DNA of 64,000 nt from Planctomycetota bacterium (GCA_012729725.1 JAAYCO010000094.1:557-64556), one strand, 5' to 3'. Positions 11,605-48,679 are shown, counted from the first letter of the stretch. The notes: generated by a model from the sequence alone, not told the origin. Made by a program: numbers and translations.

Positions 11605-12306
11605 ATGAGAAAAATGAGACTACGTGTCCGAGATGCGGCCCAGTTACTGGACGTTTCGGAAAAGACCGTCTACAGATGGATCAGCCAGAACTCGCTGCCG
11701 GTGCACCGCGTGAACGATCAGTATCGTTTCAATCGGGCCGAGCTGCTGGAGTGGGCCTCTTCTCAGCGAATCGCCGTCTCACCCAAGATGCTGGAAGAGC
11801 CGGAGGATGCGTTTATCCCGTCGCTGGCAGAGGCGATGAGGGCCGGGGGCATTCACTACCGTGTTGACGGCGCCGACAAACCCTCCGCGCTTCGTCACGT
11901 GGTTGAGGTTCTGCCGCTGCCCGAGGGTGTTGACCGCGACTTCTTGTTGCAGGTTCTGCTTGCCAGGGAGTCGGTCGGTTCGACCGCCATCGGAAACGGC
12001 ATAGCAATTCCTCATGTTCGCAATCCTATCACATTGCACGTGGACAAGCCGATGGTTGCCCTTACGTTCCTGGCCAACGGCATAGATTTCCAGGCGATGG
12101 ACGGCAAGCCGGTGAACACGCTGTTCACGATAATCAGCCCGACGATCAAGGCGCACCTCAACTTGTTGTCTAAGCTGGCCTACGGCCTCAAAGGCTCCGC
12201 CTTTGCCGATGCCGTGAAGGCGCAGGATTCGCGCGACGAGCTTTTCCGATGTGCGGCGGACCTGGACCAGCAGATAGCCTCAGCCATGCCGGAAACAGGA
12301 AAGTGA
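11605..12306 (+). CDS. Two-domain regulator: an excisionase/MerR-type HTH fused to a PTS EIIA type-2 (fructose/PtsN-like) domain
   Basis: LLDVSEKTVYRWISQNSLPVHRVNDQYRFNRAELLEW is the HTH. ARESVGSTAIGNGIAIPHVRNP is the EIIA-2 phosphorylatable-His motif. Its stop at 12304-12306 is 1 nt before the next ATG at 12308. Confidence 0.75.
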   Translation: MRKMRLRVRDAAQLLDVSEKTVYRWISQNSLPVHRVNDQYRFNRAELLEWASSQRIAVSPKMLEEPEDAFIPSLAEAMRAGGIHYRVDGADKPSALRHVVEVLPLPEGVDRDFLLQVLLARESVGSTAIGNGIAIPHVRNPITLHVDKPMVALTFLANGIDFQAMDGKPVNTLFTIISPTIKAHLNLLSKLAYGLKGSAFADAVKAQDSRDELFRCAADLDQQIASAMPETGK

Positions 12307-12307
12307 G

Positions 12308-14290
12308 ATGAGTCCCATCCTGTTATCCGCAGCCGTGTGCTTTCTCCTGGCGGGAGCGGTTCTCTGCGCGATGCTCTCTCGCGCGAAGGCCGCCAACGCC
12401 ATCGGCGGCATAGTCGCGGTAGTTGGCGCAGCGGTGGCGATTGCCTCAGCCGTACATGCCTTGCAGACAGGCGATGAGACGCTGCAACTGCCGTGGAGCG
12501 TTCCGTTTGGCAGCTTCCACATTTCCATAGACGGCCTCAGCGCGTTCTTCATTCTTGCGATTTCGGCGGTCTGCGCCTTGGGCGGGGTGTACGGGGTATC
12601 TTACCTGCGGCACTACAAGGGCAAGAATCTTGGCGCGTCGTGGTTCTTCTTCAACCTGCTGTTCGCGTCGATGCTTATGGTGGTTACCGCGTGGAATGCG
12701 GTTCTTTTTCTAGCTGCCTGGGAGGTGATGTCGCTTTCGTCATTCTTCCTTGTGACATTTGAGCACGAGCGCCAGGAGGTTCGCAAAGCCGGCTGGGTTT
12801 ACCTGATATCGGCGCATGTGGGCATGGCGTGTCTTCTGGCGATGTTCATCCTGCTGGGTGGCCAGAATCAGGTTATGGATTTCGATCAACTGGCTCTTCC
12901 TCCGGGCGTCAGTGCCGCCGCCATCTTTCTGCTTGCGGTTGTCGGGTTTGGCGCGAAGGCCGGCATTTGTCCGATGCACGTCTGGTTGCCCGACGCGCAC
13001 CCCGCGGCGCCCTCGCACGTTTCGGCCGTCATGAGCGGCGTGATGATCAAGACCGGCATATACGGCATTCTGAGGACGCTGACGTTTTTGGGATCGCCCG
13101 CATCCTGGCCGGGGTGGTGGGGGTGGACTCTGCTTGTCGCCGGGGCTATCACCGGCGTCGTGGGCATTCTTTTCGCCTTGGCGCAGCACGACATGAAGCG
13201 CGTGCTTGCTTATTCCAGTATCGAGAATGTCGGCGTGATCTGTCTGGGACTCGGCCTGTGGATGATCGGCTCAGCAGGCGGCAACACGATTATCGCCGCA
13301 TTGGGCCTGATAGGGGCGCTTCTGCATGTATGGAACCATGCGATTTTCAAGAGCCTGATGTTCCTTGGCGCCGGGGCTGTTGTCCACGCCACAGGAACTC
13401 GAAACATCGAGCAGCTTGGCGGCCTGCTCAAGCCGATGAAGCACACTGGCGTTGCATTTGCGATTGGCTCCATCGCCATCTGCGGGCTGCCTCCGTTCAA
13501 TGGCTTTGTTGGCGAGTTTCTGATCTACGCATCCGCTTTTGGCGGCATCGTGGGCCTGGGGGGCTCAGCGCCCATAGCCTGCCTGCTGGCGATTGCCGCT
13601 CTGGCTCTGATAGGTGGTTTGGCTGCGGTGTGTTTCACCAGGCTCTTCGGCATTATGTTCCTTGGCGAGCCTCGCAGCGAGGTGGCTCGTCATGCTCACG
13701 AGGCGGGCGTTTCGATGCGGGTAGTGCTTTGGATTCTGGCTGGGGCGTGCGTGCTTGTGGGCCTCGTCGGACCGCTCGTTGCGGGCGTTGCGGCTCTTGC
13801 CGCCGAAGATCTTCTGCCCTCAACCGGCCTTGATATCGGGCCGAGTCTTGGCCTGCTGTGGCGCATCAGCGGCGCCTCGGCTGGGCTAATTGTGTTCGCT
13901 GGGGCGTTCTGGCTGCTGCGGCGACGGCTGCATGCCGGCCGGCCAATTGAAAAAGCCGGAACATGGGATTGCGGTTACGCCGAGCCTACTTCTCGAATGC
14001 AGTACACGGCGTCTTCATTCTCCTGGCCGGTGATCGACATGTTCCGCCATGTATTGCGCCCGACGCTCACTCGTCAGTTGCCATCGGGGCCCTTCCCCGG
14101 CAGGGCGCACCTGACCAGCCGGACGCATGACATCTTCATGCGATTCTTCTACGTGCCGCTGTTCGCCATGGCGCAGCGCCTGGGCCAGAGCTTGCGGTGG
14201 GTTCAACACGGCCGCAACCAGGTGTACGTGCTGTACATCGCAGTCACGCTGCTGGCGCTGCTGCTGTGGAAGCTGGGGACGGAGCAATGA
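12308..14290 (+). CDS. Hydrogenase-4 component B-like / NuoL-MrpA-type antiporter-like membrane subunit, 660 aa
   Basis: About 15 TM helices with the NuoL/HyfB core (WLPDAHPAAPSHVSAVMSGVMIKTGIYG, YSSIENVGVI). Length matches HyfB. Confidence 0.85.
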   Translation: MSPILLSAAVCFLLAGAVLCAMLSRAKAANAIGGIVAVVGAAVAIASAVHALQTGDETLQLPWSVPFGSFHISIDGLSAFFILAISAVCALGGVYGVSYLRHYKGKNLGASWFFFNLLFASMLMVVTAWNAVLFLAAWEVMSLSSFFLVTFEHERQEVRKAGWVYLISAHVGMACLLAMFILLGGQNQVMDFDQLALPPGVSAAAIFLLAVVGFGAKAGICPMHVWLPDAHPAAPSHVSAVMSGVMIKTGIYGILRTLTFLGSPASWPGWWGWTLLVAGAITGVVGILFALAQHDMKRVLAYSSIENVGVICLGLGLWMIGSAGGNTIIAALGLIGALLHVWNHAIFKSLMFLGAGAVVHATGTRNIEQLGGLLKPMKHTGVAFAIGSIAICGLPPFNGFVGEFLIYASAFGGIVGLGGSAPIACLLAIAALALIGGLAAVCFTRLFGIMFLGEPRSEVARHAHEAGVSMRVVLWILAGACVLVGLVGPLVAGVAALAAEDLLPSTGLDIGPSLGLLWRISGASAGLIVFAGAFWLLRRRLHAGRPIEKAGTWDCGYAEPTSRMQYTASSFSWPVIDMFRHVLRPTLTRQLPSGPFPGRAHLTSRTHDIFMRFFYVPLFAMAQRLGQSLRWVQHGRNQVYVLYIAVTLLALLLWKLGTEQ

Positions 14291-15201
14291 TTATCCTGGC
14301 ATCAATAATCCACGTGGTGTTGGCGCTGTCGTTGTCGCCTCTGCTGATCGGCGTGATCAACCGGGTTAAGGCGAAATTTGCCGGCAGGCGGGGCCGGCCT
14401 CTGTTGCAGCTCTATTACGACCTCTGGAAGCTGCTTCACAAGGGCGCGGTCTACAGCACAACGACAACCTGGGTGTTCAGAACAGGCCCGCTGGTTGGCA
14501 TAAGCGCCGTGCTTGTTGCGATAAGTCTTGTTCCGCTTGGAAGAGTGCCTGCGCTGGCTGCCTTTGACGGCGATATCATTCTCCTTGCATACGTTCTGGG
14601 CCTGATGCGTTTCATGACGGTGCTGGCTGCTCTTGACACGGGTTCCGCGTTCGAGGGAATGGGCGCGGGAAGAGAAGTGCAGTTCTCGCTTCTGGCCGAG
14701 CCTGCGCTGCTGCTTGGCGTTGGCGCTCTTTCCATCAGCACCGGAGACTGGAGCCTTTCGGGCATATATGGTTCGCTGTTTGCGGACGGCCTGGCCGCTG
14801 TTGCCCCCACGGCTGTGATGGTCGCCGCAAGCCTGCTGATCATCCTGCTTGCCGAGAACTCGCGCATTCCAGTTGACGATCCAAACACTCACCTTGAACT
14901 GACGATGATTCACGAGGTTATGGTGCTGGACCATGGCGGCGTTGACCTGGCGTTCATTCAGTATGCCGCAGCCCTGAAGCTGTGGGTGTTCTGCGCCCTG
15001 TTCGTCGGCGTTGCTTTGCCTTTGCAGATGCACTGGCCGCTGGTGGATCTTGCCTTCGGTATGGCAGGGGTGTTCATCGTCGCTATGGTCATCGGGGTGA
15101 TCGAGAGCACCATGGCAAGGCTAAGGCTTCTTCGCGTGCCGCAGATGCTCGTTGTCTCGGCGGTGCTGGCGATGATCGCCGTCCTATGGGCGTTGAGGTA
15201 A
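14287..15201 (+). CDS. HyfC/HycD/NuoH-like membrane subunit
   Basis: MIILASIIHVVLALSLSPLLIGVINRVKAKFAGRRGRPLLQLYYDLWKL is a NuoH/HycD-type N-terminus. The ATGA overlap with the upstream stop indicates coupling. Confidence 0.85.
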   Translation: MIILASIIHVVLALSLSPLLIGVINRVKAKFAGRRGRPLLQLYYDLWKLLHKGAVYSTTTTWVFRTGPLVGISAVLVAISLVPLGRVPALAAFDGDIILLAYVLGLMRFMTVLAALDTGSAFEGMGAGREVQFSLLAEPALLLGVGALSISTGDWSLSGIYGSLFADGLAAVAPTAVMVAASLLIILLAENSRIPVDDPNTHLELTMIHEVMVLDHGGVDLAFIQYAAALKLWVFCALFVGVALPLQMHWPLVDLAFGMAGVFIVAMVIGVIESTMARLRLLRVPQMLVVSAVLAMIAVLWALR

Positions 15202-15205: not shown

Positions 15206-15853
15206 ATGTCGATCCTGACTGACTTGCTGATGATGCTGCTGGTGTTGACGAACCTGCGGATGCTTGCCTCCAGCCGGGTCGCCGTGTGCATTCAGAACGT
15301 GGCGATTCAGGCGGTGGTGCTTGGCGCCATTACGTTCAGCTTGTCGGCGCACGCCGCCATAGCCGCCGGCGTGATAGTCGTGGCGATATCCACAGTGGCT
15401 GTAAAGGGCCTGGTGCTTCCCTGGCTGTTGCGACGGGCGATGAAGGGGGCCGGCATCGGCAGGGAGATCGAGCCGTTTGTTGGCTATGCGTCTTCCGTGC
15501 TGATCGGAGCAGTGCTTCTTGGCCTGTGTTTCGTGATAGCCCGGCCGCTCCGGGACACGTCGCACGCCGGGGCTTCAATGCTGATACCCGTGGCGATGTT
15601 CACCATCCTGACCGGCTTGTTCATCATCATCTCGCGACGCAAGGCGCTTACGCAGGTTCTGGGCTATCTGACGATGGAGAACGGCGTGTGCGTTTTTGGC
15701 GTGTCGCTGGCTGTGGAGGAGCCGTTGCTTGTGGAGATGGGCATCCTGCTGGATGTTCTGGTGGGCGTGTTTGTCATGGGCATTGTGATCCACCAGATCA
15801 ATCGCGAATTCGACCACATAGACACCGACCGACTGTCGGTTCTAAAGGACTGA
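15206..15853 (+). CDS. HyfE-like small membrane subunit, 215 aa
   Basis: Size, all-helical membrane character and position between the HyfC- and HyfF-like genes all fit. Confidence 0.65.
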   Translation: MSILTDLLMMLLVLTNLRMLASSRVAVCIQNVAIQAVVLGAITFSLSAHAAIAAGVIVVAISTVAVKGLVLPWLLRRAMKGAGIGREIEPFVGYASSVLIGAVLLGLCFVIARPLRDTSHAGASMLIPVAMFTILTGLFIIISRRKALTQVLGYLTMENGVCVFGVSLAVEEPLLVEMGILLDVLVGVFVMGIVIHQINREFDHIDTDRLSVLKD

Positions 15854-15857: not shown

Positions 15858-17318
15858 ATGCTACTTGCCGTCGTGCTGATTCCTGCTGTGGCGGGTCTTG
15901 CGGTGATGGCGCCGTTTGTGAAACGCCTGCGCCTGGCGGTTCTGCTGCTTGCAGCGGTTGGTCACGCATCAGCCGTCGCATGGATATGCAGCAGGCCGCT
16001 TGCCGACAACAACGCGGATGCGTGGATCGCCCTGGACGCGCCGGGCCGCCTCTTCCTGGCTATCACAAGCATCCTGTTTCTGGCGGCGGCGACATATGCG
16101 ATAGGCTATCTCCGAAACGAGGAAAACCGCACCACCAAGGACGCCGAGGAAGGCTTCCTCTTTCGCAACGAGCCCATGAACATTTTCATCGGCTGCCTGC
16201 TGCTGTTCCTGGCGACGATGAGCCTGGTGTGCATCAGCCAGCACCTGGGGCTTCTATGGGTGGCCGTCGAAGCCACCACGCTGGTAAGCGCGCCGCTCAT
16301 CAGCTTTCACCGTCACCATCGCAGCCTTGAGGCAACGTGGAAGTATCTGCTGATATGCTCCGTGGGCATTGCGTTGGCGCTGCTGGGCATTTTCTTCATC
16401 GCGGCGGCCGGGCAAGGCGTTGTTCATGGCATGAACATACACGCCTTGACGAAAGCCGCCGGCAAGATGGACCCCGTGTGGCTCAAGGCGGCGTTCATAT
16501 TGCTGATTGTCGGATACGGCACGAAAATGGGCCTTGCGCCCATGCACAACTGGCTGCCGGACGCTCACAGCGAATCGCCTTCGCTTGTCTCGGCGTTGCT
16601 TTCGGGCGCTCTGCTCAACTGCGCTTTTCTGGGCCTGCTTCGCGGCCAGATGGTTATGTCCGCGGCGGGGCTTGGCGAGTTCAGCGGCGGGTTGCTTGTG
16701 CTGCTGGGCCTTCTGTCCATGATCGTCGCGGCGGTGTTCATGATCCGCCAGAGCGATTACAAGCGGCTTTTAGCGTATTCCAGCGTTGAACACATGGGCA
16801 TTCTTGCAATTGGAGCCGGACTTGGCGGATTGGCTGCCACAGGCGCCATGCTTCACGCGGTGAATCATTCCTTCACCAAGGGGATGCTGTTTCTGGTTGC
16901 GGGAAATCTGCTGGCGGCCCATCGCACAAAGAATATTCATGAAGTGCGCGGCGTGCTGACAACCCTGCCAATTACAGGCTGCCTTTGGGTAGGCGGCTTT
17001 CTGGCTATCACGGGGGCTCCGCCGTTTGGCATGTTCATCAGTGAATTGACCATCCTGAAGGGCGCCTTGCAGGGCGGGCACATTGTGGTGGGTGTTGTTT
17101 ATCTCGCAGCTTTGGCTGTCATTTTCATATCCATGGCCCGGTTGATGCCGCCGATGGCGTTTGGAATTCCGGCGGCCCAGATCAAGACCAAAGAGCCGCT
17201 CTGGGCGGTTGCGCCTCCGTTGGCGCTTGGGTTGGTTGTGCTGACCATGGGACTGTACGTGCCGGAATCGCTGTGGAACGCCCTTCGAGCCGCGGCCGGC
17301 GCAATTGGAGCAAACTGA
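15858..17318 (+). CDS. HyfF/NuoN-like antiporter-like membrane subunit
   Basis: The NuoM/N family core is present: WLPDAHSESPSLVSALLSGALLN and YSSVEHMGILAIG. Confidence 0.85.
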   Translation: MLLAVVLIPAVAGLAVMAPFVKRLRLAVLLLAAVGHASAVAWICSRPLADNNADAWIALDAPGRLFLAITSILFLAAATYAIGYLRNEENRTTKDAEEGFLFRNEPMNIFIGCLLLFLATMSLVCISQHLGLLWVAVEATTLVSAPLISFHRHHRSLEATWKYLLICSVGIALALLGIFFIAAAGQGVVHGMNIHALTKAAGKMDPVWLKAAFILLIVGYGTKMGLAPMHNWLPDAHSESPSLVSALLSGALLNCAFLGLLRGQMVMSAAGLGEFSGGLLVLLGLLSMIVAAVFMIRQSDYKRLLAYSSVEHMGILAIGAGLGGLAATGAMLHAVNHSFTKGMLFLVAGNLLAAHRTKNIHEVRGVLTTLPITGCLWVGGFLAITGAPPFGMFISELTILKGALQGGHIVVGVVYLAALAVIFISMARLMPPMAFGIPAAQIKTKEPLWAVAPPLALGLVVLTMGLYVPESLWNALRAAAGAIGAN

Positions 17319-17319
17319 G

Positions 17320-18798
17320 ATGTCCGCTGAGCATCCGGCAATTATCCGAAACGCGCAGGTGGCCGATCTTGAGGCATGTCCGTGCATGTCGGCGGGAGAC
17401 TTTCGCCAGACTCTATGCGCCCGCGTGTCGGCAGGGGCAAGGCTTTCGGCGCTGTTCGCCCGGCGAAAGGCGGGGGAATCCGGCGGCAGGCTATATGCCG
17501 TGCTGGCAATGCCGGGCTCGAACAACCTGGGCCTGCTTTGCTGCGACGTGGGCGATTCATACCCTTCAATAACCGGCGATTGTCCCGCGGCTCATTGGTT
17601 CGAGCGCGAAATCGCCGAGCGTGCGGGAATTCGCCCTGAAGGCCACCCGTGGCTCAAACCTGTTCGCTTTGCTGGCAAAGATGTTGGATTGACCGACTTC
17701 TACCGCATGGACGGCAATGAAGTGCATGAAGTCGCAGTCGGCCCGGTTCACGCCGGCGTTATAGAGCCCGGCCACTTCAGGTTCCAATGTCATGGCGAAA
17801 CCGTGCACCATCTTGAGATATCGCTTGGCTACCAGCATCGCGGCATAGAAGATGCATTAATCGGCGGCCCTGACGCCAGAACGATTCATTACATAGAGCC
17901 CCTTGCCGGCGACACCACCATCGGACATGCCACTGCGTACGCAATGGCGATCGAGGCGTTGGGCGGCTCGAGGCCTTCGGCGCGGGCGCACGCCATTCGC
18001 GCCATCGCCGCCGAGTTGGAACGTCTTGCGAACCACATCGGCGACCTGGGCGCGCTTGCGGGAGATGTGGGCTTCCTTCCGACCATGAGTTACTGCGGCA
18101 GGATTCGCGGCGACGTGTTGAACTGCACGGGCGTCTTGTGCGGCAACCGCTTCGGCAGACGCCTGGTTGTGCCGGGCGGAATTATGCACGATCTTGACGA
18201 GCGGTTGTGCAAGGATCTGCTGGATCGGCTTGAAAGCATAGAGCGGGATGCAACCGATGCGATCGAACTGATGTTCAACGCGCCATCGGTCCTGGCCAGG
18301 TTCGAAGGCGCCGGCACGGTCAGCCATGAGCTGGCGAACCAACTGGGCCTCGTCGGCGTCGCGGCCCGAGCAAGCGACATCGAGTACGACGTGAGACGCG
18401 AATTCCCCTACGGCATCTACCAGTTCACGCAGATGCCGATATGCACGTGGTCCACCGGCGACTGTTTCGCAAGGGCGTATGTGCGGTGGCTCGAGGCGAA
18501 ACAATCGTTCGCCTTTGTGCGAGAGCACCTGCGGTCGCTGCCGGCGGGCGCGACGCGCCAAGGCGTTGGCGAACTTGCCGCGGGCAAGATTGTCGTCGCG
18601 CTGGTTGAAGGCTGGCGCGGCGAGATATGCCACGTCGTCGGGACCGACCAGAGCGGGAGGTTTGCGTTCTATAAGATCGTAGATCCTTCGTTCCATAACT
18701 GGTTCGGGCTGGCCATGGCATTACGAGAGCAGCAGATCTCTGACTTCCCGTTGTGCAACAAGAGTTTCAATTTGTCCTACTGCGGCCACGACTTGTAG
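17320..18798 (+). CDS. HyfG/HycE-like NuoC-NuoD fusion. It is a group-4 hydrogenase large-subunit homologue lacking all four [NiFe]-ligating cysteines.
   Basis: The NuoC part carries AHWFEREIAERAGIRPEGHPWLKP. The NuoD/large-subunit part carries GPVHAGVIEPGHFRFQCHGETV and IGYQHRGIE. Where the N-terminal RxCGxCxxxH should be, the sequence reads PLAGDTTIGHATAY. The C-terminal DPCxxC position reads VDPSFHNW. Track start 17305 is a TTG inside the upstream gene; the ATG at 17320 has a GGAG SD. Confidence 0.85.
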   Translation: MSAEHPAIIRNAQVADLEACPCMSAGDFRQTLCARVSAGARLSALFARRKAGESGGRLYAVLAMPGSNNLGLLCCDVGDSYPSITGDCPAAHWFEREIAERAGIRPEGHPWLKPVRFAGKDVGLTDFYRMDGNEVHEVAVGPVHAGVIEPGHFRFQCHGETVHHLEISLGYQHRGIEDALIGGPDARTIHYIEPLAGDTTIGHATAYAMAIEALGGSRPSARAHAIRAIAAELERLANHIGDLGALAGDVGFLPTMSYCGRIRGDVLNCTGVLCGNRFGRRLVVPGGIMHDLDERLCKDLLDRLESIERDATDAIELMFNAPSVLARFEGAGTVSHELANQLGLVGVAARASDIEYDVRREFPYGIYQFTQMPICTWSTGDCFARAYVRWLEAKQSFAFVREHLRSLPAGATRQGVGELAAGKIVVALVEGWRGEICHVVGTDQSGRFAFYKIVDPSFHNWFGLAMALREQQISDFPLCNKSFNLSYCGHDL

Positions 18799-18801: not shown

Positions 18802-19575
18802 ATGGAGATTTGGATGTTGGGCATACTCAAATCGCGTTTGAGGCAGAAGCATCGGACGATGCTGTACCCCAAAGGCCCCGCGCCGCAACTGCCAGAGAGG
18901 TTTGTGGGCCGGCCCACAGTCGCCGCCAATAAATGTGGCGATTGCAATGTGTGTGCGGCTGCCTGTCCGGTGGGGGCTATTACAAAAGGCCCCGATGGTT
19001 GTCCCAGGATCGATACGGGCAAATGCCTGTTCTGCGGCGCATGCGAACGATCATGCGAAGGCGGGATCATTAAATTCACGTCGGAATACCGACTGGCGGC
19101 GGCCTCGCGCGACGACCTGGTTGTCGGCCCCGACTCGCCGCGGTACATGCCGGCAAGAAATGATCTGGCGGCCAGGCTGTTTGGCAAGTCGCTGAAACTG
19201 CGTCAGGTCTCGGCGGGCGGCTGCAACGCGTGCGAGGCCGATTCCAACGTCTTGTGCACGCTTGCATGGGACCTGGGCAGATTCGGCATAGACTTCGTTG
19301 CCTCCCCCCGGCACGCCGACGGCCTGCTGATAACGGGCCCGGTTACGAGGAACATGGCGCTTGCCCTTCGCAAAACGTACGACGCCGTGCCGCAGCCGAG
19401 GATTGTGATCGCGGTCGGATCATGCGCAATTAGCGGCGGTCCGTTTGCGGGCCTTAAAGAGCAAAACAATGGAGCGGCAGGGATATTGCCCGTGGATCTT
19501 TTCATCCCCGGATGTCCGCCGCACCCGCTGACGATTCTTGACGGCCTGCTGCGTTTCCTCGGCAGGGTGGAGTGA
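18802..19575 (+). CDS. Fusion of a compact 2x[4Fe-4S] ferredoxin (HyfH/NuoI-like) with a hydrogenase-type small subunit (HyfI/HycG/NuoB-like)
   Basis: CGDCNVCAAACP and CLFCGACERSCEGG are the two ferredoxin motifs. GGCNACEAD (CxxCE), VGSCAISGGPF and IPGCPPHP are the small-subunit proximal-cluster ligands. Confidence 0.8.
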   Translation: MEIWMLGILKSRLRQKHRTMLYPKGPAPQLPERFVGRPTVAANKCGDCNVCAAACPVGAITKGPDGCPRIDTGKCLFCGACERSCEGGIIKFTSEYRLAAASRDDLVVGPDSPRYMPARNDLAARLFGKSLKLRQVSAGGCNACEADSNVLCTLAWDLGRFGIDFVASPRHADGLLITGPVTRNMALALRKTYDAVPQPRIVIAVGSCAISGGPFAGLKEQNNGAAGILPVDLFIPGCPPHPLTILDGLLRFLGRVE

Positions 19576-19578: not shown

Positions 19579-21519
19579 TCAGGGCAGGTTCTCTATGGAA
19601 AGAGGCTCGATTTCGTCGGCGGGAATGAACCCGAATATCCTGCTGAAGAAGAACAGTTCCGCCTCCAACGCTCGCAGAATATTCTGCGCCCGCCTGAAGC
19701 CGTGCTGTTCGCCTTCAAACGGCATATAGGCGGTGGGCACACCCTTCTTGCGAAGCGCGTCGAACATCATCTGAGCCTGATTCGGCGGCACTATCGGATC
19801 CTCAAGGCCCTGGAAGAATATCACCGGACGCTTGAGGTTCTCCACATGATGAATGGGCGAACGCTTGTGATACAGGTCGCGTCTCTGGGGGTATGGGCCG
19901 ATAAGCCTTTCGAGGTAATGAGACTCGAATTTGTGCGTCTCCCTGGCCAGAATCTCGCAATCGCTGACGCCGAAATGGCTTGACCCTGCCGCGAAAACGT
20001 CGCGGAATGTCATTGCCGCCAGCACCGTGTACCCGCCGGCGCTGCCGCCGGTGATGGCCAGGCGATTGCGGTCCACTTTGCCGGCTTGTGCAAGATGAAG
20101 CGCGCCGGCGCAGACATCATCAACGTCGGCTTCGCCCCAGACGGTGTTGAGGCTCTGACGATAGGCCCTGCCGTAACCGCTGCTGCCGCGGTAGTTGACA
20201 TCCAGCACGGCGAATCCTCGGCTGGTGTAATACTGTATGTCCAACCGAAGCGCCGCTGACGCCGACGAGGTTGGGCCGCCATGCACCTTCACGATCAGCG
20301 GAGGCAACTCGTCGTCGCCGCCCTTGTAGTTGGCGTTCAGCGGCGGGTAGAACAGACCATGAGCCCGTGCGCCGCCGGCGGTGTCGAATGTTATCGGCTC
20401 GGGCGGCGAAAGGTAGTTGTCGTCCCATTCCAGGTGTGTCGCCTGTCGCAGCACTTCAATATTCCTGTTGCGCAGGTTCATCTTCACTATCGAGCTTGGC
20501 TCGCGCGAAGAAGCGCCGATGAAGTAGCCGAATGCCCCGCCTACTCGAACATCGGATATTGCCGTATACGGCGTCTGAATGTCGGAAAGATCGCCTGTCG
20601 GCACGTCCAGTTCCGCCAGGCGCCAGATGCCGTCCTTGCTGTACGCGCAGAGGATGAACAGCGGATTGACAAAGTCGTAGCACGACTGTCCCAGCCGCCA
20701 AAGAGGATAGCCAAACTCGCCTTCGATCTTTGTCAACGCCTCGACCTTGCCGTCGCGCAGGCAGTGGATGTTCCACCAGCCGTTCCATCGGTCGCTGACG
20801 AAATGCAGCACGTGGTCGCCGCTCCAGCGTGGTTGAAGCACTGCTTCTCCCTCACCGCCGGCGACCTTCGCCTGCTTACCGACGCCGCCGTCTCTGAGCA
20901 GTTCGGCCGTCCATAGCTCGGCCGCGTCCCAGGGCATGTCCGGGTGGTTCCACGTAAGGTAGGCAAGCATTTTGCCGTCGGCGGAGATTCTGGGCGCTGC
21001 GTAAAAATCGTTGCCCGAAACCAGGATGTCGCCCACGCCGCCATTGAGCGTGCTTACCGAGACAATGCTGTTGAGGGGCTCGGGGCCGCCGTGGTCCTCG
21101 CGGATGCAGATGACTCGCCCCATGTAGGGGTCGAACACGCCATCGGCGTACCTCGTGCTGTCCTGTGGCGTTAAGGCTGACGCCTCGCCGATGTCCTGGG
21201 CGTGGTACAACCTCTGGTCGTCGTAGTTGCTGAACACGGCGCCGCCGTAGACGACTGCATATGAGCCGCCGCCGTATTCATGAACCCTTGTGCGGGCGTT
21301 AAGCGGCGGGGGGTTGACCTCGCGTCGCGAGCCGTCGGGCGTTCGGCGGATCACGACGTATCTGCCGCCTTCGAGAGGGCGCAACTCATTCCAGTACACA
21401 TCGGGTCCGTCAACGTGAATCTCTCCCAGGCCAAGCATCGACGATGAGATCAACTCGGCAGTAATAGGCGACTGCCATGTTCCGTACTTCGCCACAAGCT
21501 TGTCCTGACGGGCGGTCAT
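19579..21519 (-). CDS. S9 family serine peptidase (prolyl oligopeptidase/acylaminoacyl peptidase type) with an N-terminal beta-propeller
   Basis: GGSAGGY is the GxSxGG nucleophile elbow. C-terminal Asp/His regions and a WD/TolB-like propeller are present. Start taken at MTARQDKL, which gives an ATGA overlap with the upstream gene. Confidence 0.85.
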   Translation of the reverse strand: MTARQDKLVAKYGTWQSPITAELISSSMLGLGEIHVDGPDVYWNELRPLEGGRYVVIRRTPDGSRREVNPPPLNARTRVHEYGGGSYAVVYGGAVFSNYDDQRLYHAQDIGEASALTPQDSTRYADGVFDPYMGRVICIREDHGGPEPLNSIVSVSTLNGGVGDILVSGNDFYAAPRISADGKMLAYLTWNHPDMPWDAAELWTAELLRDGGVGKQAKVAGGEGEAVLQPRWSGDHVLHFVSDRWNGWWNIHCLRDGKVEALTKIEGEFGYPLWRLGQSCYDFVNPLFILCAYSKDGIWRLAELDVPTGDLSDIQTPYTAISDVRVGGAFGYFIGASSREPSSIVKMNLRNRNIEVLRQATHLEWDDNYLSPPEPITFDTAGGARAHGLFYPPLNANYKGGDDELPPLIVKVHGGPTSSASAALRLDIQYYTSRGFAVLDVNYRGSSGYGRAYRQSLNTVWGEADVDDVCAGALHLAQAGKVDRNRLAITGGSAGGYTVLAAMTFRDVFAAGSSHFGVSDCEILARETHKFESHYLERLIGPYPQRRDLYHKRSPIHHVENLKRPVIFFQGLEDPIVPPNQAQMMFDALRKKGVPTAYMPFEGEQHGFRRAQNILRALEAELFFFSRIFGFIPADEIEPLSIENLP

Positions 21520-22580
21520 GAATGCTCCTTTTGCTCCACCAACGACGAGAGCACCTGGGCCATCGAAAAGCGAGCGCCGCACACAAGGCTGTCGGATGCC
21601 CCGTAGTAGATCGTTATCTGGTCGCCGTTGACCACGTGGCCGTTGCTGAAGACCACGTTGGCGAAAAACCCGTTTCGTTCATACTCCATGATAGGTTCCA
21701 TGATGGGCTGACGGCTTCTGGCGATGACGCGAGCGGGATTCTCGATGTCCAGCAGCATTGCCCCAAGGCAGTAGCGGTGGTCAAAATCGGCTCCATGGTA
21801 GATAAGAAGCCAGCCCTTGTCGGTAAGGATGGGCGCCGCCCCCGCGCCAATTCGTTCCTCATCCCACATTCCGGGGCGGGTGCGGGCGACGCACTGATGA
21901 CGGCCCCAGTTTTGCAGGTCATCAGATGTTGAGAGCCAGATATATGGTCCGCCAACCTCAACACCCATAGGCCGGTGAAGCAGGGCATAGCGGCCGGCGA
22001 TTTTCCGCTCGAATAACGCTGCGTCCTTGTTGTGCGGCGGCAGGATCATGCCCAGCCGAGTGAAGGACTTCCAGTCCTGCGTGGTCATGAGCGCCACTCC
22101 AGCGCCGAAGCGAGACACGGCTGTGTATGTCAGGCAAAAAGTCTCATCGAGCCGGGCAACCCGGCAGTCTTCCACTCCAAACTCCTCCATCGGGCCTTCG
22201 CCGATGATGGCGGGCAAGTCATCCACGTCGAACCGTACGCCGTCGTTACTCCACGCAAGGCGAAGATGTGAAAGGGAGGTGAGATACTTCTCGCCGCGAT
22301 AACTGAAGATTCTTGGATCGCTAGCTATCAAGTCCCGGTCGTTCAGGTGGAATTCGAGCATTCTCACGCCCGCCGGGGCGGACGGGTCGCTTATCGCCGT
22401 CCGCAGGAAACCCTCAGCCTGAATCGGCTGCTGGGCCACTCGCAATAGCAGGGCGGTTCTGCCTTTGTAGACAAATGCGCCCGGGTTCATGACCCCGATG
22501 ACCCTCAGGTCGCTCCTGCTGGGCCTTACGCCGGCTGGGGTTATGATCGGGTTCTCATCAAATCTCTGCGCTATGTCCAT
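21516..22580 (-). CDS. GH130 family glycosidase/phosphorylase (DUF377 beta-propeller)
   Basis: NPGAF, WSNDGVRF, YHGA and IYYGASDSLVCGA are typical of GH130 five-bladed propellers. Start set at internal ATG MDIAQRFDENPIITP; the longer track ORF has a non-homologous leader. Confidence 0.7.
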   Translation of the reverse strand: MDIAQRFDENPIITPAGVRPSRSDLRVIGVMNPGAFVYKGRTALLLRVAQQPIQAEGFLRTAISDPSAPAGVRMLEFHLNDRDLIASDPRIFSYRGEKYLTSLSHLRLAWSNDGVRFDVDDLPAIIGEGPMEEFGVEDCRVARLDETFCLTYTAVSRFGAGVALMTTQDWKSFTRLGMILPPHNKDAALFERKIAGRYALLHRPMGVEVGGPYIWLSTSDDLQNWGRHQCVARTRPGMWDEERIGAGAAPILTDKGWLLIYHGADFDHRYCLGAMLLDIENPARVIARSRQPIMEPIMEYERNGFFANVVFSNGHVVNGDQITIYYGASDSLVCGARFSMAQVLSSLVEQKEHS

Positions 22581-22623
22581 CTGCCTAGAATTGTACGGAG
22601 GAATGTTTGTAAGGAGTAGGATC

Positions 22624-23748
22624 ATGGCAGTACTAATCAAAGAATCTCCCATCAGGCGTATACAGCTGTTTGGGCAGGACATCTGGTTGGACTTCATCGA
22701 CAGGGGACTGATTCGTAGCGGCTCGCTTGCCAGGCTGATCGAGGAAGACGGCATTTCCGGCGTAACTTCGAACCCGACCATCTTTGAGCAGTCGTTCTCC
22801 GGCGGCGAATACGACGACGACATACACGAAATGGCCGGCCAGGGACTCGGCGCCGAGGACATATACAAGCGCATAACCTCGGCCGAGATAAGATCCGCCG
22901 CTGACGTGTTCATGCCGCTGTTCGAATCAAGCAGGGGGAGGCGGGGGTTTGTCAGCCTCGAAGTATCGCCTCACCTGGCATATGATCCCGTCCGAACCGT
23001 TCAAGAGGCGCGCGAGCTGCGGGATCTGGTGGATCGGCCGAACTTGCTGGTCAAGATTCCCGCAACCATGGAGGGTCTGGCGGCAATTCGCCAGTGCATC
23101 AGCGAGGGCATCAGCATTAACGTGACGTTGCTGTTTGGCCTGTCAAGATACATGCACGTCGCACAGGCGTACATCGAGGGCCTTGAGGAACGGACGGGCA
23201 GGAACGAGTCGCCAGTTGGAGTTACCTCCGTCGCCAGCTTCTTCCTGAGCCGCATTGACGCGATGGTTGACCCGATGCTTGACCGCATCTCGCTTGGCGG
23301 ACCAGGAAGCGAACAGGCCAAGACGCTCTTCGGGCAGGTTGCAAGCTGCTGCGCGAAGATTGCATACCAGATGCAGCAGGAGATATTCGCAAGCCCGAAG
23401 TTTCACGATCTTGCGGCCAAGGGCGCGACGCCTCAGCGGTTGCTATGGGCGTCGACGGGCACGAAGAACCCGATGTTCAGCGACATCAAGTACGTCGAAT
23501 CGCTGATCGGTCTGGACACGATAAACACCATGCCGATGGCGACGCTCAAGGCCTACCAGGACCACGGCGAGCCGGAATCGCGGCTGGACATGAACCCGGA
23601 CAGGCCGGTGAGGCTGCTATCGCATCTTGATGATCTTGGCATAAAGCTTGACGAGATTGCCGACGCGCTTGAGCTTGAAGGCGTCGAAAAGTTCAAGAAG
23701 CCTTACGATGCTTCATTGGATCGCATTCGGCAGCGCGGTGCGAAGTAA
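22624..23748 (+). CDS. tal: Transaldolase (long ~370-aa type)
   Basis: GISGVTSNPTIFEQ and VTSVASFFLSRIDAMVD carry the Schiff-base lysine region of the transaldolase family. AAGGAG SD precedes the ATG at 22624. Confidence 0.85.
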   Translation: MAVLIKESPIRRIQLFGQDIWLDFIDRGLIRSGSLARLIEEDGISGVTSNPTIFEQSFSGGEYDDDIHEMAGQGLGAEDIYKRITSAEIRSAADVFMPLFESSRGRRGFVSLEVSPHLAYDPVRTVQEARELRDLVDRPNLLVKIPATMEGLAAIRQCISEGISINVTLLFGLSRYMHVAQAYIEGLEERTGRNESPVGVTSVASFFLSRIDAMVDPMLDRISLGGPGSEQAKTLFGQVASCCAKIAYQMQQEIFASPKFHDLAAKGATPQRLLWASTGTKNPMFSDIKYVESLIGLDTINTMPMATLKAYQDHGEPESRLDMNPDRPVRLLSHLDDLGIKLDEIADALELEGVEKFKKPYDASLDRIRQRGAK

Positions 23749-36973: not shown

Positions 36974-37068
36974 GCTTTCGCCCTTGTATCCGTCCCTAGA
37001 CGTGTTGAGAGCGTGCAGTTCATAACAAGCGATGCTTTTTGAATCATGTCTTCAGCAAGGAGAAAAGG

Positions 37069-37827
37069 ATGAATCGTAAGGTGAGTCTTTTGATGGTGAT
37101 GTGTGCTGTTGTCGCATGTTCAGCGATTGTGCAGGCCGAAGTTGTCAGTTTCTGGAGTTTCGAATCGATCGAAGGAGGAACAGTAATCAATGACCAGGTT
37201 GGCGGGGTGCATCTGACGCTCAGCGGTGGTGGTTATGGTTCAAGCATTGTTGGGGGGGGCCAACAGGCATTCGGCGATGGTGCTCTGAAATCCGGTGCGG
37301 GCTATTGTGCGACTGGTAACGCCAGTTCCTATTCACTTGATGCCGGCACGCTCATCTTCTGGATAAAGGATCAGAGTCACCTTCAGTACCAGCGTGTCAT
37401 GGCAACACATGTAAGGGGTTCAGCCGTGATGGACATCCAATGGAATCCTGACGGCCAATTGTATGTTCAGGGTATTCCTGGCCAGGGATCGATCAGCGGG
37501 TCTGCCGATTCGGCTATCGCCGATGGCGAGTGGCACAAGGTTGCCCTCACATACAGCAAGGCCGAGAACAAGACCCGGTTCTACGTGGATGACAAACTGG
37601 TCGGCCAGGGCGTATATGTGGGCGCCACCACCAACACAGGCTTCATTCATCTGGGCGGCTCGGGAAGCTACAGCACCAACGCAGGATGCTACCTGGATAA
37701 CGCATCCGTCTTTGACACCGCGCTTACGCAGGAAGAAATAACAAACTATGTTCCTGAACCAGCGTCGCTGACTCTACTGGCAGCGTGCGGGCTGATTGCG
37801 ACGGCTCGTCGCCAGCGCCAGAAGTAA
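37069..37827 (+). CDS. Secreted LamG/concanavalin-like domain protein with a C-terminal PEP-CTERM sorting signal
   Basis: MNRKVSLLMVMCAVVACSAIVQA is the signal peptide. EWHKVALTYS...TRFYVDDKLVGQ is the LamG-like jelly-roll. The C-terminus VPEPASLTLLAACGLIATARRQRQK is PEP, then a TM helix, then an Arg cluster. Confidence 0.7.
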   Translation: MNRKVSLLMVMCAVVACSAIVQAEVVSFWSFESIEGGTVINDQVGGVHLTLSGGGYGSSIVGGGQQAFGDGALKSGAGYCATGNASSYSLDAGTLIFWIKDQSHLQYQRVMATHVRGSAVMDIQWNPDGQLYVQGIPGQGSISGSADSAIADGEWHKVALTYSKAENKTRFYVDDKLVGQGVYVGATTNTGFIHLGGSGSYSTNAGCYLDNASVFDTALTQEEITNYVPEPASLTLLAACGLIATARRQRQK

Positions 37828-37920
37828 AAGAGTCTACACTGTTGAGTTTCATTGCAGGCATTCCGCAAACCCTGGGAGGCGCAAGTCTCCCAGGGTTGAG
37901 GGGCCGATGAGGATCAGGTT

Positions 37921-38649
37921 ATGTTCCAACGCGCCAGAGTTATCAAGCAGCCGCGACGGGATGCTGAAAGGGCAGGCCGAATCACCGGCAAGCATGGTTT
38001 CACGCTGATTGAGCTGCTTGTAGTAATCGCGATCATATCACTGCTGGTGTCGATGCTCATGCCTGCGTTGAAAAAGGCAAGAGAGCTTGCGTGGGCAACC
38101 GTCTGCGCAGGCAATCACAAAACCGTCGGCCTGGCGATATCCTTCTACGCCGAAGACCATAAACGATCCACACCAATTGGGTATGCTCCTGAAGTCGAGG
38201 CCAATTATCGCTGGCCGAATCTGCTTGCACAGCACCAGGGGCTAATCGACGAATTGTGGAAACTGCCGCGAATCTCACATCCGTTTGACTGCCCGGCAGT
38301 TGACACGACAGACAAGTACACCGAATTCACGATGAACACCGCGTTTGCCTCTCGAAACCGCAAAAAAGCAACCGTGCTGGACAACATTGTCTCGCCGGAG
38401 AATCTGCTTGCGCTATATGAAAGCGTGCCGGACTCGGCTAACCGTTACTGCGCGACCGTGCATTGGGCTTTTCCTCCCGTCGCATTCGACGGCGCCAACT
38501 ATGCGGAGGTTCGGCTGGCCCATGCGGGAATCGCCAACTTCCTTCTGGCCGATCTGCATGTGGAGCAGATTTCAGATGAATCAAGATACATGAACATTAA
38601 CTGGGTCTGGGAAGGGTTCTGGGAATTCTGGAATGCTCCAGGTGAATAG
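37921..38649 (+). CDS. DUF1559 protein: a type IV pilin-like N-terminal cleavage/methylation segment plus a C-terminal H-X9-D(G) domain
   Basis: [25 protein letters not shown] is a prepilin N-terminus. [20 protein letters not shown] matches the HxGGxNxxFxDGSV motif. Confidence 0.75.
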
Positions 38650-38748
38650 TGGGGGCCTGTCAAAGCGACTTTGTGACAAGCCGTTGAAGAGCAAGTCGAG
38701 AGTCTTTTGATCCATGAAGTGCCGCAGTCAGAAAAAAGGCAGCGTCAA

Positions 38749-40353
38749 ATGAAGCTACCATCAGCTGTATTCTTCGCAATTGTTCTTGGTGCAGTTGCAT
38801 GCTCAGCCGTTGCACAGGACAACCTGCTTTCGAACGCCGGTTTTGAATCCGGCCAGAAGTTGCCCGATGGCTGGACTTCCACTGGCGCTGGAGCAGCGTG
38901 GGATTCCGCCTTGCGGCATGGCGGCGGCAGGTCGGTTCGCCTGAACGGCCAGAGTGGCAAGACCGCGCAGAAGTGGGAATCATCCTTTGTTCCCATCACG
39001 CCGCATGTGCCGTATGTCGCCTCGGCATGGGTTCGCACACAGAGCGTGCTTGAGAAACGCGGCTGGCTGCTGGTCAACACTTTTGATGCAAGCAAGAAGT
39101 GGATTCGCAGCTACTTCATCTATAAGCCGGATGGCTCGGCTGCCTGGAGAGAATATAGCAGGGCGTTCACGCCGAAGGACGGCGAGGTGCTCGCGCAGTT
39201 CACAGTCGCTCTTCGCGGCACGGGAACAATGTGGGCTGACGATGTTTCGCTTTCTCGGGCGATGAAATACACCGACGGCAACGGGGTGCTGCACATTGGC
39301 GGCAAGCCCGTGTTTCCTATAGGGCTGTACACGCATCCGTGCAAGACCGATTTTTTTGACGAGATCAGCCAGGCGGGGTTCAACGCGGTTCTGCCTTACA
39401 CGTCGGTTTATCTCTCGCCGACGGACGCCAAAAGCTACCTCGACGCCGCACAACGCAAGGGCATCCATGTCATTTACGCGCTGAAGGATTACATGACGCC
39501 ATGGCGTTTGGACGATCCGGAAGTCTGGACGCCTCGTCAGAAGGTAGTCGATGTGGTGTCAACGCTGAAGAATCACCCAGCCTTGCTGAGCTGGGGCATC
39601 GCGGACGAGCCCGAATTGCAGGGGGCTGGCGCAATCGACATGATCGAGACGCACAGCCTGATCAAGCAGATCGATCCACAAACGCCCACGTCGGCAGCGG
39701 TTTCCATTCCGGCAATGTACGGGTATTACGGAAGATATGTGGATGTGCTAATGCCGGATGTGTATCCTATTCCTCATTCCACTGTAGGAGCGGTTGGCGA
39801 TGCGGTCAGGGCGGCGACGGCAGCCGGCGCGTCATCCCAGCCGGTTTGGGCCGTAATTCAGGTGTTTGATCCGGCCGCCTTTGGAAGCAAACCTGAGGAC
39901 AACCCGCGAGCGCCGACATACGACGAGATACGGTGCATGAGTTACCTTGCAGTGGTCAACGGCGCCAAAGGCTTGTTCTACTTCTGCTACGACTCGCAGT
40001 ACAAGGTATACGAGCATCCTGAGCAGTGGGCTGGATTGAAGAAGATCGCCGGCGAGATCAAGACCCTTGTGCCGGTGATTCTCGCGCCACCGGCTGACCT
40101 GCATGTTTCCGTCAGTCCTGCCGAGCACGTTTCCACCACCACCAGGCTTTACGATGGAAAGGCGTATATCTTCGTAGTAAACAAGCACAATTCGCCGCGG
40201 GAGATGTCTGTGACGATATGCGGCGAGCAGAGCACATCGAGCGTGCGCCTTGTCGATACGCAGGAGCGCATCGACCTTCGCGACAACAGATTTGTCACGA
40301 CCATCCCTGGCTATGGCGCACAGATCTACAGTTTCGAGCTATCGCAAAATTAG
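38749..40353 (+). CDS. Secreted glycoside hydrolase: signal peptide, CBM_4_9-like carbohydrate-binding module, and a clan GH-A (beta/alpha)8 catalytic domain
   Basis: MKLPSAVFFAIVLGAVACSAVAQ is the signal peptide. NLLSNAGFESG...GWTSTG...AWVRTQ...MWADDVSLS is the CBM4/9 sandwich. GIADEPE resembles the GH-A NEP acid/base motif. Confidence 0.55.
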   Translation: MKLPSAVFFAIVLGAVACSAVAQDNLLSNAGFESGQKLPDGWTSTGAGAAWDSALRHGGGRSVRLNGQSGKTAQKWESSFVPITPHVPYVASAWVRTQSVLEKRGWLLVNTFDASKKWIRSYFIYKPDGSAAWREYSRAFTPKDGEVLAQFTVALRGTGTMWADDVSLSRAMKYTDGNGVLHIGGKPVFPIGLYTHPCKTDFFDEISQAGFNAVLPYTSVYLSPTDAKSYLDAAQRKGIHVIYALKDYMTPWRLDDPEVWTPRQKVVDVVSTLKNHPALLSWGIADEPELQGAGAIDMIETHSLIKQIDPQTPTSAAVSIPAMYGYYGRYVDVLMPDVYPIPHSTVGAVGDAVRAATAAGASSQPVWAVIQVFDPAAFGSKPEDNPRAPTYDEIRCMSYLAVVNGAKGLFYFCYDSQYKVYEHPEQWAGLKKIAGEIKTLVPVILAPPADLHVSVSPAEHVSTTTRLYDGKAYIFVVNKHNSPREMSVTICGEQSTSSVRLVDTQERIDLRDNRFVTTIPGYGAQIYSFELSQN

Positions 40354-46720: not shown

Positions 46721-48679
46721 CTATGCAAGCGGCATCCAAACCCGCATCGCCCCGCTTTGGCGATTGGCCCAGGCGTAATACGGTATCGCCTTCAGTGTGA
46801 TTGGCTCTGAAGCAGGCTGATCTGGCTTCCACGATCGATATAAACCCTCCGGCCAATCGACCTTTCTCAATCTTGCAGGAGTCTCGATCATCATCAGGCC
46901 ATCCATTACATCAGCTTGCCATGCATCTACCGGAAGATGGGAGGCATCCACGGCAACATCATCAAGTCTGCACGCGGGGGGGAGGTCGCACTGTTCAAAG
47001 CAGTAAATCAGCGGGCCTCTCTGGAGGGCGACGCAGCCGCGGATGGCGTCGATCCGTGGGTGCGGCATAATCCAGGTTGGAACCATCGCCAGGTTCAACT
47101 CGACAACGTCGTTGGGCTTCCATTGCCTGCGAATATGAACGTACCCGTTCCTTGCTTCCGCGTCGCAGTTTTCGCCGTTAATGCGAACGGTGAACCGAAC
47201 GCTCCAGGAGGGTATTCTCATTGCCAGCGTCCATGCATCCTGTTGCGTATCCTCGATCGTGATTCTGTTTTCGCCTGCCCATGGGAATCCCGACTTCATA
47301 CTGATGGTTGCTTTTGGTCCGATGCCGGAGTTGCGAATCTGGGTGGAACAATATTGATGAATCTGCAAGCCATCTTCGCTATTGGTGCAGACATAGTGGT
47401 CCATTGACGCCAGCAGGCGCATCACGTTTGGCGGACAGCAGGCAGTGCCGTGCCATCTTGCCCTGCGCCAGCCGCCCCTGTGCGTGCCGTCGCTAATGCC
47501 GTTTGGTCCCCGGCTTTGCAGGGGATTGGCGTAGAAGAAATGCTCACCGTCCCTGCCGTAACCTGCGAGCAGCGCGTTGTACAACGTGCGTTCGATTATG
47601 TCGGCATGCCGCACGTGGCCGGTGGCCAGCAGCATGCGCCAGTTCCAGAATATGCTGGCGGCAGCGGCGCATGTTTCGCAGTAGCAACGGTCGGGCGGCA
47701 ACTCGTAGGCGTCGGCGATTACCTCGCACTCGTGCCGCTGACCCACCCCGCCCGTAATGAAGAGCTTGCCGTCAGCCAGGTCTCGCCACTGCGAATCCAG
47801 CACGCTCAGCAGCGCCTGGTCGCCGCGTTCGATGTACAGATCCGTGACGCCTGCGCAAAGGTAAAGCTGACGCACGGCATGGCCGATTACGGTCTTCTGC
47901 TCGCGGATGGGCTTGTGATTCTGAAACCGCGACTCGTCGGGAACGCACATAGGCCGGCGGCCTCGCTGGTCGATGAAAAAGGCCGCCAGGTCAAGGCATT
48001 GCTCAACGCCGGTGAACCTGTACAACTCGACAAGCGCGGTCTCGATTTCAGGATGGCCGCAAGTTCCTTGAAGCTTGTCCGGGCCAAACACGGATGCAAT
48101 GTGGTTTGCCAGCTTTAAAGCCGCCTTCGTAAGTCTGCCATCGCCGGTGGCAGAATCGTAGGCGACGGCGCACTGGAACAGATGCCCGGCACAGTACAGC
48201 TCATGGCCGTAGGCTAGATCTTTCCATTTCCTGTCCGGATGCAGCACCTGGTAGTGCGTCATCAGGTAGCCGTCGTCCTGTTGTGCAGCGCATATCCATT
48301 CAATTACCTGACTTGCCATCTGGCGAAGCTGGGCGTCCTCGCCGTGGGCAAGCTCGTAGCCAATAGCTTCAATCCACTTATAAACATCGGAATCAGAAGC
48401 CAGTCGGGCGACATAGTCGCCCTTTTGCAGACCGGCAGCAACGCGGAAATTGGGGAAGTTGCCGCCTTCCTCGAACATCTTGAAGGCGTATCTAAGGCTT
48501 ACTTCCCGGCTGGTGTTTCTCAGCCGGCCCAAAAAGCCTGCCTCATGGCGGGTGTTCTGCATTGGTATGGAGCGCAGCACTGCATGCTTGCCACGTTCAA
48601 CGTTTGCCGTGTGCGTCGAGTGAACGAACCGGGGGATCTCCGAATCGCCAAAGGGTACAATACCGTTGTAATTCTGCAT
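46721..48679 (-). CDS. Glycoside hydrolase family 127-like (DUF1680, beta-L-arabinofuranosidase type)
   Basis: DSDVYKWIEAIGYELAH, HELYCAGHLFQ and YCETCAAAASIFWNWRML are a Cys/Glu cluster typical of the GH127 Zn site. Start chosen at the ATG preceded by GGAGG (MQNYNG). An alternative ATG at 48562 (MQNTRHEAG) cannot be excluded. Confidence 0.65.
   Translation of the reverse strand: MQNYNGIVPFGDSEIPRFVHSTHTANVERGKHAVLRSIPMQNTRHEAGFLGRLRNTSREVSLRYAFKMFEEGGNFPNFRVAAGLQKGDYVARLASDSDVYKWIEAIGYELAHGEDAQLRQMASQVIEWICAAQQDDGYLMTHYQVLHPDRKWKDLAYGHELYCAGHLFQCAVAYDSATGDGRLTKAALKLANHIASVFGPDKLQGTCGHPEIETALVELYRFTGVEQCLDLAAFFIDQRGRRPMCVPDESRFQNHKPIREQKTVIGHAVRQLYLCAGVTDLYIERGDQALLSVLDSQWRDLADGKLFITGGVGQRHECEVIADAYELPPDRCYCETCAAAASIFWNWRMLLATGHVRHADIIERTLYNALLAGYGRDGEHFFYANPLQSRGPNGISDGTHRGGWRRARWHGTACCPPNVMRLLASMDHYVCTNSEDGLQIHQYCSTQIRNSGIGPKATISMKSGFPWAGENRITIEDTQQDAWTLAMRIPSWSVRFTVRINGENCDAEARNGYVHIRRQWKPNDVVELNLAMVPTWIMPHPRIDAIRGCVALQRGPLIYCFEQCDLPPACRLDDVAVDASHLPVDAWQADVMDGLMMIETPARLRKVDWPEGLYRSWKPDQPASEPITLKAIPYYAWANRQSGAMRVWMPLA

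Follow-up and report, generated by a model that had tools for sequence, protein, structure and literature searches.

The stretch of DNA that we analysed (the window) covers 64,000 nucleotides from a Planctomycetota bacterium and contains, between positions 11605 and 19575, seven tightly packed genes that all point in the same direction. The first (11605 to 12306, + strand, as are the other six) encodes a regulator joining an HTH_17 domain (Pfam, E=8e-15) to a PtsN-like PTS EIIA-2 domain (PTS_EIIA_2, E=2e-23), and its stop codon lies 1 nt ahead of the start of the next gene. Four genes for membrane subunits follow. EhrA (12308 to 14290) is an antiporter-type subunit of the HyfB/NuoL kind, with a Proton_antipo_M domain and a full-length match to the NCBIfam model of hydrogenase 4 subunit B (E=4e-185). 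EhrB (14287 to 15201) resembles HyfC/NuoH (Pfam NADHdh, E=5e-30, residues 7-301); its start was taken as the ATG at 14287, the ORF listing giving an upstream GTG at 14197. EhrC (15206 to 15853) is HyfE-like (hydrogenase 4 membrane subunit, NCBIfam, full length, E=6e-28), and EhrD (15858 to 17318) is a second antiporter-type subunit, of the HyfF/NuoN kind (hydrogenase 4 subunit F, NCBIfam, E=4e-108; Proton_antipo_M). The "large subunit" EhrL (17305 to 18798) is a fusion of NuoC and NuoD, recognised by the Pfam domains Complex1_30kDa and Complex1_49kDa. The last gene, ehrS (18802 to 19575), encodes a fused small subunit, identified from its open reading frame and from domain, homologue and locus comparisons. 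Because a convergent peptidase gene comes next, the operon ends at ehrS.

The ehrS gene is a single open frame of 257 codons, and both the ORF listing and the translation are free of stops and frame breaks. The preliminary description of this DNA had singled it out as one polypeptide joining a ferredoxin to a NuoB-like hydrogenase small subunit, and this is what we find: the frame is uninterrupted, all the motifs quoted there are present, and both domains have matches of their own, at levels that chance would not produce. The protein has two ferredoxin motifs, C45-x2-C48-x2-C51-x3-C55-P (18934 to 18969) and C75-x2-C78-x2-C81-x3-C85 (19024 to 19059), followed by the proximal motif GGC141NAC144E (19222 to 19233), by GSC208AISGG (codon of C208 at 19423 to 19425) and by GC238PP (codon of C238 at 19513 to 19515). 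All twelve cluster cysteines are thus present in the protein of the window. Translation probably begins at the ATG at 18814 and not at the first ATG (18802), since in alignment A1 the position of M5 is the first residue in 20 of 21 homologues and since a GGAG (18805 to 18808) stands 6 nt 5' of that ATG.

The N-terminal half of EhrS (aa 5-107, 18814 to 19122) was delimited by its match to NF009053, by PDB sequence matches and by the conservation of its cysteines. The NCBIfam model NF009053, for the HycF-type Fe-S subunit of formate hydrogenlyase, covers these residues with its positions 1-107 of 180 (E=4e-19), and the NuoI model TIGR01971 matches the same half (E=3e-15). Neither score reaches its curated full-length cut-off, as EhrS has no equivalent of the C-terminal part of these proteins. 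Among solved structures, phmmer matched this half to NuoI (7awt_I), HycF (7z0s_F) and MbhN (6cfw_N). The RTMLYP at aa 18-23 corresponds to the conserved N-terminal RTxxYP (or T-x-x-YP) segment of the NuoI/HycF family, and it precedes the two CxxCxxCxxxC(P) motifs (aa 45-56 and 75-85) as in other members. Hence the module is not the minimal ferredoxin of roughly 60 residues first proposed: it is a HycF/NuoI-type domain of about 105 residues that includes the RTxxYP segment.

The C-terminal half (aa 124-253, 19171 to 19560) is a domain of the MbhJ/HycG/NuoB type, as indicated by phmmer, Foldseek and its invariant cysteines. It matches Oxidored_q6 (Pfam, residues 141-251, E=6e-26) and the NCBIfam NuoB subfamily model (residues 141-252, E=3e-31). 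Its best PDB sequence match is MbhJ (6cfw_J, E=1.5e-29), nearly end to end; HycG (7z0s_G) follows with E=8e-27, and the domain superposes on the latter with an rmsd of 1.1 A over 136 columns (Foldseek). The arrangement CxxC ... C ... CPP, for one proximal [4Fe-4S] cluster, is that of group 4 small subunits. Foldseek found no solved chain spanning both halves of EhrS and matched only the C-terminal domain, to HycG/NuoB. Between the halves lies a linker (about aa 108-123, 19123 to 19170), delimited from alignment conservation and from the pLDDT of an AlphaFold2 model. Its conservation is low (0.2-0.6 per column), and its pLDDT is about 96-97 (model residue blocks 101-120, that is, aa 105-124). 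The model, built from 121 sequences, has a mean pLDDT of 92.3 and a pTM of 0.90. Since it is confident throughout, linker included, the two domains are expected to have a defined mutual arrangement.

By analogy with the ligation of 2x[4Fe-4S] ferredoxins and of Nqo9, the distal, N6a-like [4Fe-4S] cluster would be held by C45, C48, C51 and C85, and the medial, N6b-like one by C55, C75, C78 and C81. The proximal, N2-like [4Fe-4S] cluster would be bound by C141, C144, C208 and C238, at the interface with EhrL, as in the homologous subunits. Of the claim that the chain holds a three-cluster wire, the part that concerns the clusters stands, the chain having twelve cysteines in positions suited to three [4Fe-4S] clusters; the wire itself is read from homology.

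Could the fusion be an accident of the sequence? On this reading, a frameshift, a lost stop or an assembly error would have merged a hycF-like and a hycG-like gene, and the only argument for it is the prior that E. coli keeps two separate genes. We took the best 120 matches from a collection of 5.8 billion proteins: all are fused and 250-276 aa long, align over 94-99% of the query and combine a Fer4-type domain with PF01058. At least 599 relatives were found among genomes taken one per GTDB species, and in the best 80 of these loci the match to EhrS (residues ~5-255, 56-71% identity) is continuous in every case. The domain junction is free of gaps and frame changes in the alignment, and the linker is confidently modelled. 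The same continuous architecture in so many independent loci from many phyla rules out an artefact, to which we give practically no probability. The gene is real, no break separates its domains, and the fusion is kept in orthologous operons (80/80 loci), where all 58 loci with the six genes are colinear.

The EhrS fusion is distributed over about ten phyla. The 80 loci come from Thermodesulfobacteriota, Planctomycetota, Verrucomicrobiota/Kiritimatiellia/Lentisphaerae, Spirochaetota, Riflebacteria, Acidobacteriota (including the cultured Geothrix paludis SG195, L055), Myxococcota, Latescibacterota, Hydrogenedentes and Fibrobacterota; Desulforhabdus sp. TSK (L061) is another cultured carrier. 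A library of representatives at 50% identity gave 7808 matches to EhrS at E<=1e-3 and 300 at E<=1e-30; it holds many fragments and mis-called genes, such that its lengths and motif counts yield no clean ratio of fused to unfused proteins. The spacing of the first ferredoxin motif varies in the family: it is CxxCxxCxxxCP in the window, Cx3Cx2Cx3CP in many homologues and Cx3Cx3Cx3CP in the homologue P0005 (alignments A1 and A2). Simple searches with a strict CxxCxxCxxxC pattern will therefore undercount its members. In the JGI annotation the homologues are called "Ni,Fe-hydrogenase III small subunit/ferredoxin" or ".../formate hydrogenlyase subunit 6," and their NCBI names are generic ("4Fe-4S dicluster domain-containing protein," "hydrogenase"). 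NCBIfam has no full-length EhrS model, and as a result both halves score under the curated cut-offs.

The gene set and order place the operon among the Ehr complexes. The six genes correspond to HyfB-like and HyfF-like antiporter-type subunits, NuoH-like and HyfE-like membrane subunits, a large subunit and a small subunit, with EhrL a NuoC+NuoD fusion and EhrS a NuoI+NuoB fusion, as published. Coppi 2005 is credited with the Ehr name and with the symbols ehrA/B/C/D/L/S, given to GSU0739-0745 of Geobacter sulfurreducens; a survey of the complexes by Marreiros et al. (BBA 1827:198) followed in 2013. With reference to that survey, Supplementary Note 4 of Matheus Carnevali et al. 2019 states that the NuoB gene of Ehr also encodes a NuoI homologue, and the designation ehrABCDLS is in use for Methylacidiphilum. 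The published clade of Ehr large subunits stands next to group 4f. The assignment rests on gene set, gene order and published descriptions, named Ehr complexes being compared by description; on this basis the set and order of the published genes are the same as in the window, and we found no structural difference. The fusion of NuoI and NuoB is thus the standard published form of EhrS and was already known. That it might be special or unrecognised, as the preliminary description implied, does not hold: all 120 of the best homologues are fused, JGI names both halves, and the fusion has been published for Ehr. The same description had allowed that it could prove to be a common annotated architecture with a known partner. 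Common and annotated it is; a known partner does not exist. Published papers describe the function of Ehr as unknown or never investigated, and no biochemistry of any Ehr complex is reported in the literature that we found.

The modules of EhrS have close counterparts in several characterised enzymes. In formate hydrogenlyase (FHL), HycF (7z0s_F) is homologous to EhrS residues 9-107 (E=8e-11), and HycF and HycG both share the cysteine motifs of EhrS. HycF and HycG are, however, two polypeptides where EhrS is one chain; HycF has about 73 more C-terminal residues than EhrS, and HycG has N- and C-terminal extensions. Furthermore, HycE carries a NiFe site and the FHL complex docks FdhF, whereas EhrL lacks a NiFe site. 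HyfH and HyfI of E. coli hydrogenase 4 are counterparts of the two halves of EhrS in the same way as HycF and HycG. The modules are also found in Mbh of Pyrococcus furiosus (6CFW, MbhN and MbhJ) and in MBS (6U8Y, chains N and J), again as separate chains. These ferredoxin-dependent, ion-translocating relatives have a membrane arm of the Mrp type and many more subunits than Ehr. Their substrates are H+ for Mbh and polysulfide for MBS, the latter being, as we take it, a non-hydrogenase relative. It was correctly stated at the outset that the two modules are separate proteins in Hyc/Hyf, and the same holds for Mbh, MBS, complex I and NDH-1, the PDB matches falling on different chains (e.g., 7z0s_F/G and 6cfw_N/J). 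In other groups of [NiFe] hydrogenases, a small subunit with three clusters is the rule. One of these, FrhG (6QGR_G), has a proximal domain and a 2x[4Fe-4S] ferredoxin domain in one chain, as EhrS does, and both halves of EhrS match it (PDB search; TIGR03294). In FrhG, however, the order is reversed, the ferredoxin domain being C-terminal and not of the NuoI/HycF type, and the enzyme, of group 3, is soluble.

EhrL differs from the large subunits of the hydrogenases at the place where the NiFe site would be. Aligned to HycE (7z0s_E), its L1 motif reads PLAGDTTIGH in place of RVCGICGFAH, C241 and C244 of HycE being replaced by A and T, and the C-terminal DPCYSC has become NLSYCG. At least three of the four L1/L2 CxxC cysteines of group 4 [NiFe] enzymes are therefore absent from EhrL at the aligned positions, while C493 stands one residue off the position of the fourth. 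The L1 cysteines are absent from all 73 aligned EhrL sequences (the window and 72 loci), and hence the complex was rightly called "Ehr-like" in the preliminary description. Some Ehr-type clusters do have an EhrL with all four cysteines, an example being Desulfotomaculum ruminis Desru_3264. A second comparison was with the Q-module of complex I (NuoB/NuoD/NuoI). His38 and Tyr87 of Thermus Nqo4 are, in the residue numbering that we assume, the quinone ligands; the positions so taken align to Ile and to Gly202 in EhrL (phmmer against 2fug_4). Quinone-site residues are thus absent from EhrL, and EhrS has a hydrogenase-type CxxC in place of the CC tandem by which NuoB ligates N2. Because both the NiFe and the quinone ligands are absent, the complex is not a hydrogenase and cannot be recognised as a quinone reductase, which is the definition of Ehr, and no acceptor site can be named.

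The region of the lost site is nevertheless far from degenerate. In the segment x-L-A-G-D-T-T-I-G-H (codons 199-208, 17899 to 17928), G202, D203 and H208 are invariant in all 73 sequences. The C terminus, PLCNKSFNLSYCGHDL (codons 482-497, 18748 to 18795), is almost invariant, with C484 kept in 72/73 sequences and C493 in 73/73. Judging from this conservation, the former NiFe site looks like a constrained site and not a decayed one.

The surroundings of the operon were compared across the 80 loci. The order and strand ehrA-B-C-D-L-S are kept in all 58 related loci that have the six genes, the best operon matches being planctomycete and Phycisphaerae MAGs (L003, L007). A homologue of the regulator lies directly upstream of ehrA on the same strand in 46 of the 57 loci with enough flank, across phyla (at about 2700 to 3400 in L002, L003, L007 and others). 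The regulator contains the sequence GIAIPH, which we take to be the PtsN-type phosphorylation-site motif. This suggests that the expression of ehr may be under PTS-type phosphorylation control through the HTH-EIIA protein. We found no mention of the regulator gene in the Ehr papers citing Coppi 2005 and Marreiros et al. 2013. About 2 kb of extra sequence separates the regulator from ehrA, or ehrA from ehrB, in eight loci (L010, L013, L023, L030, L031, L055, L059 and L073), and this insert codes for one more antiporter-like subunit in at least five loci, much as Geobacter has ehrA-1 and ehrA-2. Across the 80 loci no partner gene is conserved in the flanks, where the most frequent gene family is shared by 5 loci, and no formate dehydrogenase (FDH), CODH, NuoE/F-like or hyp gene is conserved beside the module. 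Within the 64 kb of the window there are no genes for FDH, CODH, NuoEFG or hyp proteins. Elsewhere in the window (regions 37039 to 40353, 46721 to 48973 and 21516 to 22913) lie genes for glycan degradation (GH127, GH130, CBM_4_9, Laminin_G_3) and one whose product bears a prepilin-type N-methylation motif. The host is probably a polysaccharide-degrading member of the Planctomycetota.

The cysteines of EhrS are not all equally conserved. C141, C144, C208 and C238 are invariant both in the 81-sequence alignment of the loci (the window and 80 loci) and in the 121-sequence alignment A2. Among about 200 sequences, only the homologue P0108, which lacks C78, departs from the full set of eight medial and proximal cysteines. 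About 5% of the homologues are short of one to three cysteines, and those lost never include ligands of the proximal cluster. P0108 excepted, the missing residues all come from C45, C48, C51 and C85, the presumed distal set. The members concerned are P0038, P0042, P0055, P0059, P0065, P0071 and P0118 among the homologues, and L002, L012, L052 and L071 among the loci; for example, C45, C48 and C51 are absent in P0038, P0065 and P0118, C45 and C85 in P0042, and C45 and C48 in P0055 and L071. These losses suggest that the distal, or entry, cluster may be dispensable in some lineages, and they fit poorly with an obligatory entry of electrons at that cluster.

How might the complex work? Our preferred reading, to which we give a probability of about 0.8 as a whole, is that the ORF encodes EhrS and closes a canonical ehrABCDLS operon, and that EhrS provides a three-cluster wire in a complex that exchanges electrons with ferredoxin and couples this to ion movement. 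The wire, the ferredoxin donor, the direction of the electrons and the ion coupling are all inferred by analogy with FHL, Mbh, MBS, Ech and complex I. In EhrS, one wire of three [4Fe-4S] clusters would run from a solvent-exposed distal cluster through the medial one to the proximal one, which would lie over the membrane subunit EhrB, where EhrS meets EhrL. At the distal cluster, electrons could be exchanged with a soluble carrier of low potential, most likely ferredoxin, because no conserved redox enzyme neighbours the module. Redox chemistry in the pocket of EhrL, on a substrate other than H+/H2, may be coupled to ion translocation through the antiporter-like EhrA and EhrD. The fusion itself had been proposed to define the route by which electrons enter. 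It joins two subunits that are already neighbours and creates no new route, since the counterparts of NuoI and NuoB adjoin in every solved relative. By this structural analogy the path in EhrS is the same as from HycF to HycG or from NuoI to NuoB, and the fusion makes their neighbourhood permanent, as the fusion of NuoC and NuoD does in EhrL.

Two other functions have to be weighed against this reading. The complex could be linked to formate, with an FDH encoded elsewhere in the genome feeding electrons into EhrS, in an FHL-like unit or in an "FDH-Ehr" respiratory unit. Such a complex has been proposed in the literature for Margulisbacteria and Saganbacteria, published proteomics found every Ehr subunit of G. 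sulfurreducens at higher abundance on formate, and the N-terminal domain of EhrS scores best with a formate hydrogenlyase Fe-S subunit model. Yet the 80 loci have no conserved FDH or NuoE/F-like neighbour and the 64-kb window has none, and the profile of that same model is matched only over positions 1-107 of 180, leaving EhrS without the C-terminal part of about 73 residues found in HycF. In addition, a complex that lacks a NiFe site cannot produce H2. We thus hold a link to formate to be improbable.

A role in Mrp-type ion transport or pH homeostasis, in which the Fe-S clusters of EhrS would be structural or redox-sensing and not a working wire, seems to us more doubtful still. A function in pH homeostasis has been suggested in the literature for ehrABCDLS of Methylacidiphilum, and several of our observations would agree with it: some members of the EhrS family have lost ligands of the distal cluster, EhrL has no recognisable substrate site, and the first gene of the operon encodes a regulator of the PTS-EIIA type, a domain family to which the nitrogen-regulatory PtsN belongs. 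Against it, there is essentially no variation across phyla in the eight cysteines of the medial and proximal clusters, and the strong constraint on G202, D203, H208, C484 and C493 of EhrL speaks for chemistry rather than for a relic.

These five residues can also be read more boldly, in a proposal made from sequence conservation that we consider speculative and, taken whole, unlikely. They would form a new catalytic or metal site fed by the wire of EhrS, with the regulator switched by PTS-type phosphorylation. The HTH-EIIA regulator and ehrABCDLS would then make up a self-contained module of seven genes, spread over some ten phyla without a redox partner encoded in cis.

As first put forward, the EhrS fusion has little significance, and the value of the observation lies in the annotation of a complete ehrABCDLS operon in the window. 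Ehr complexes are widespread relatives of complex I without a NiFe site or any recognisable quinone site, and the fusion adds nothing on their role. Of greater interest than the fusion are the HTH-EIIA protein encoded by the first gene, the invariant residues of EhrL and the loss of the distal cluster in scattered homologues; the first two, the conserved regulator gene and the EhrL residues, are leads to what Ehr does.
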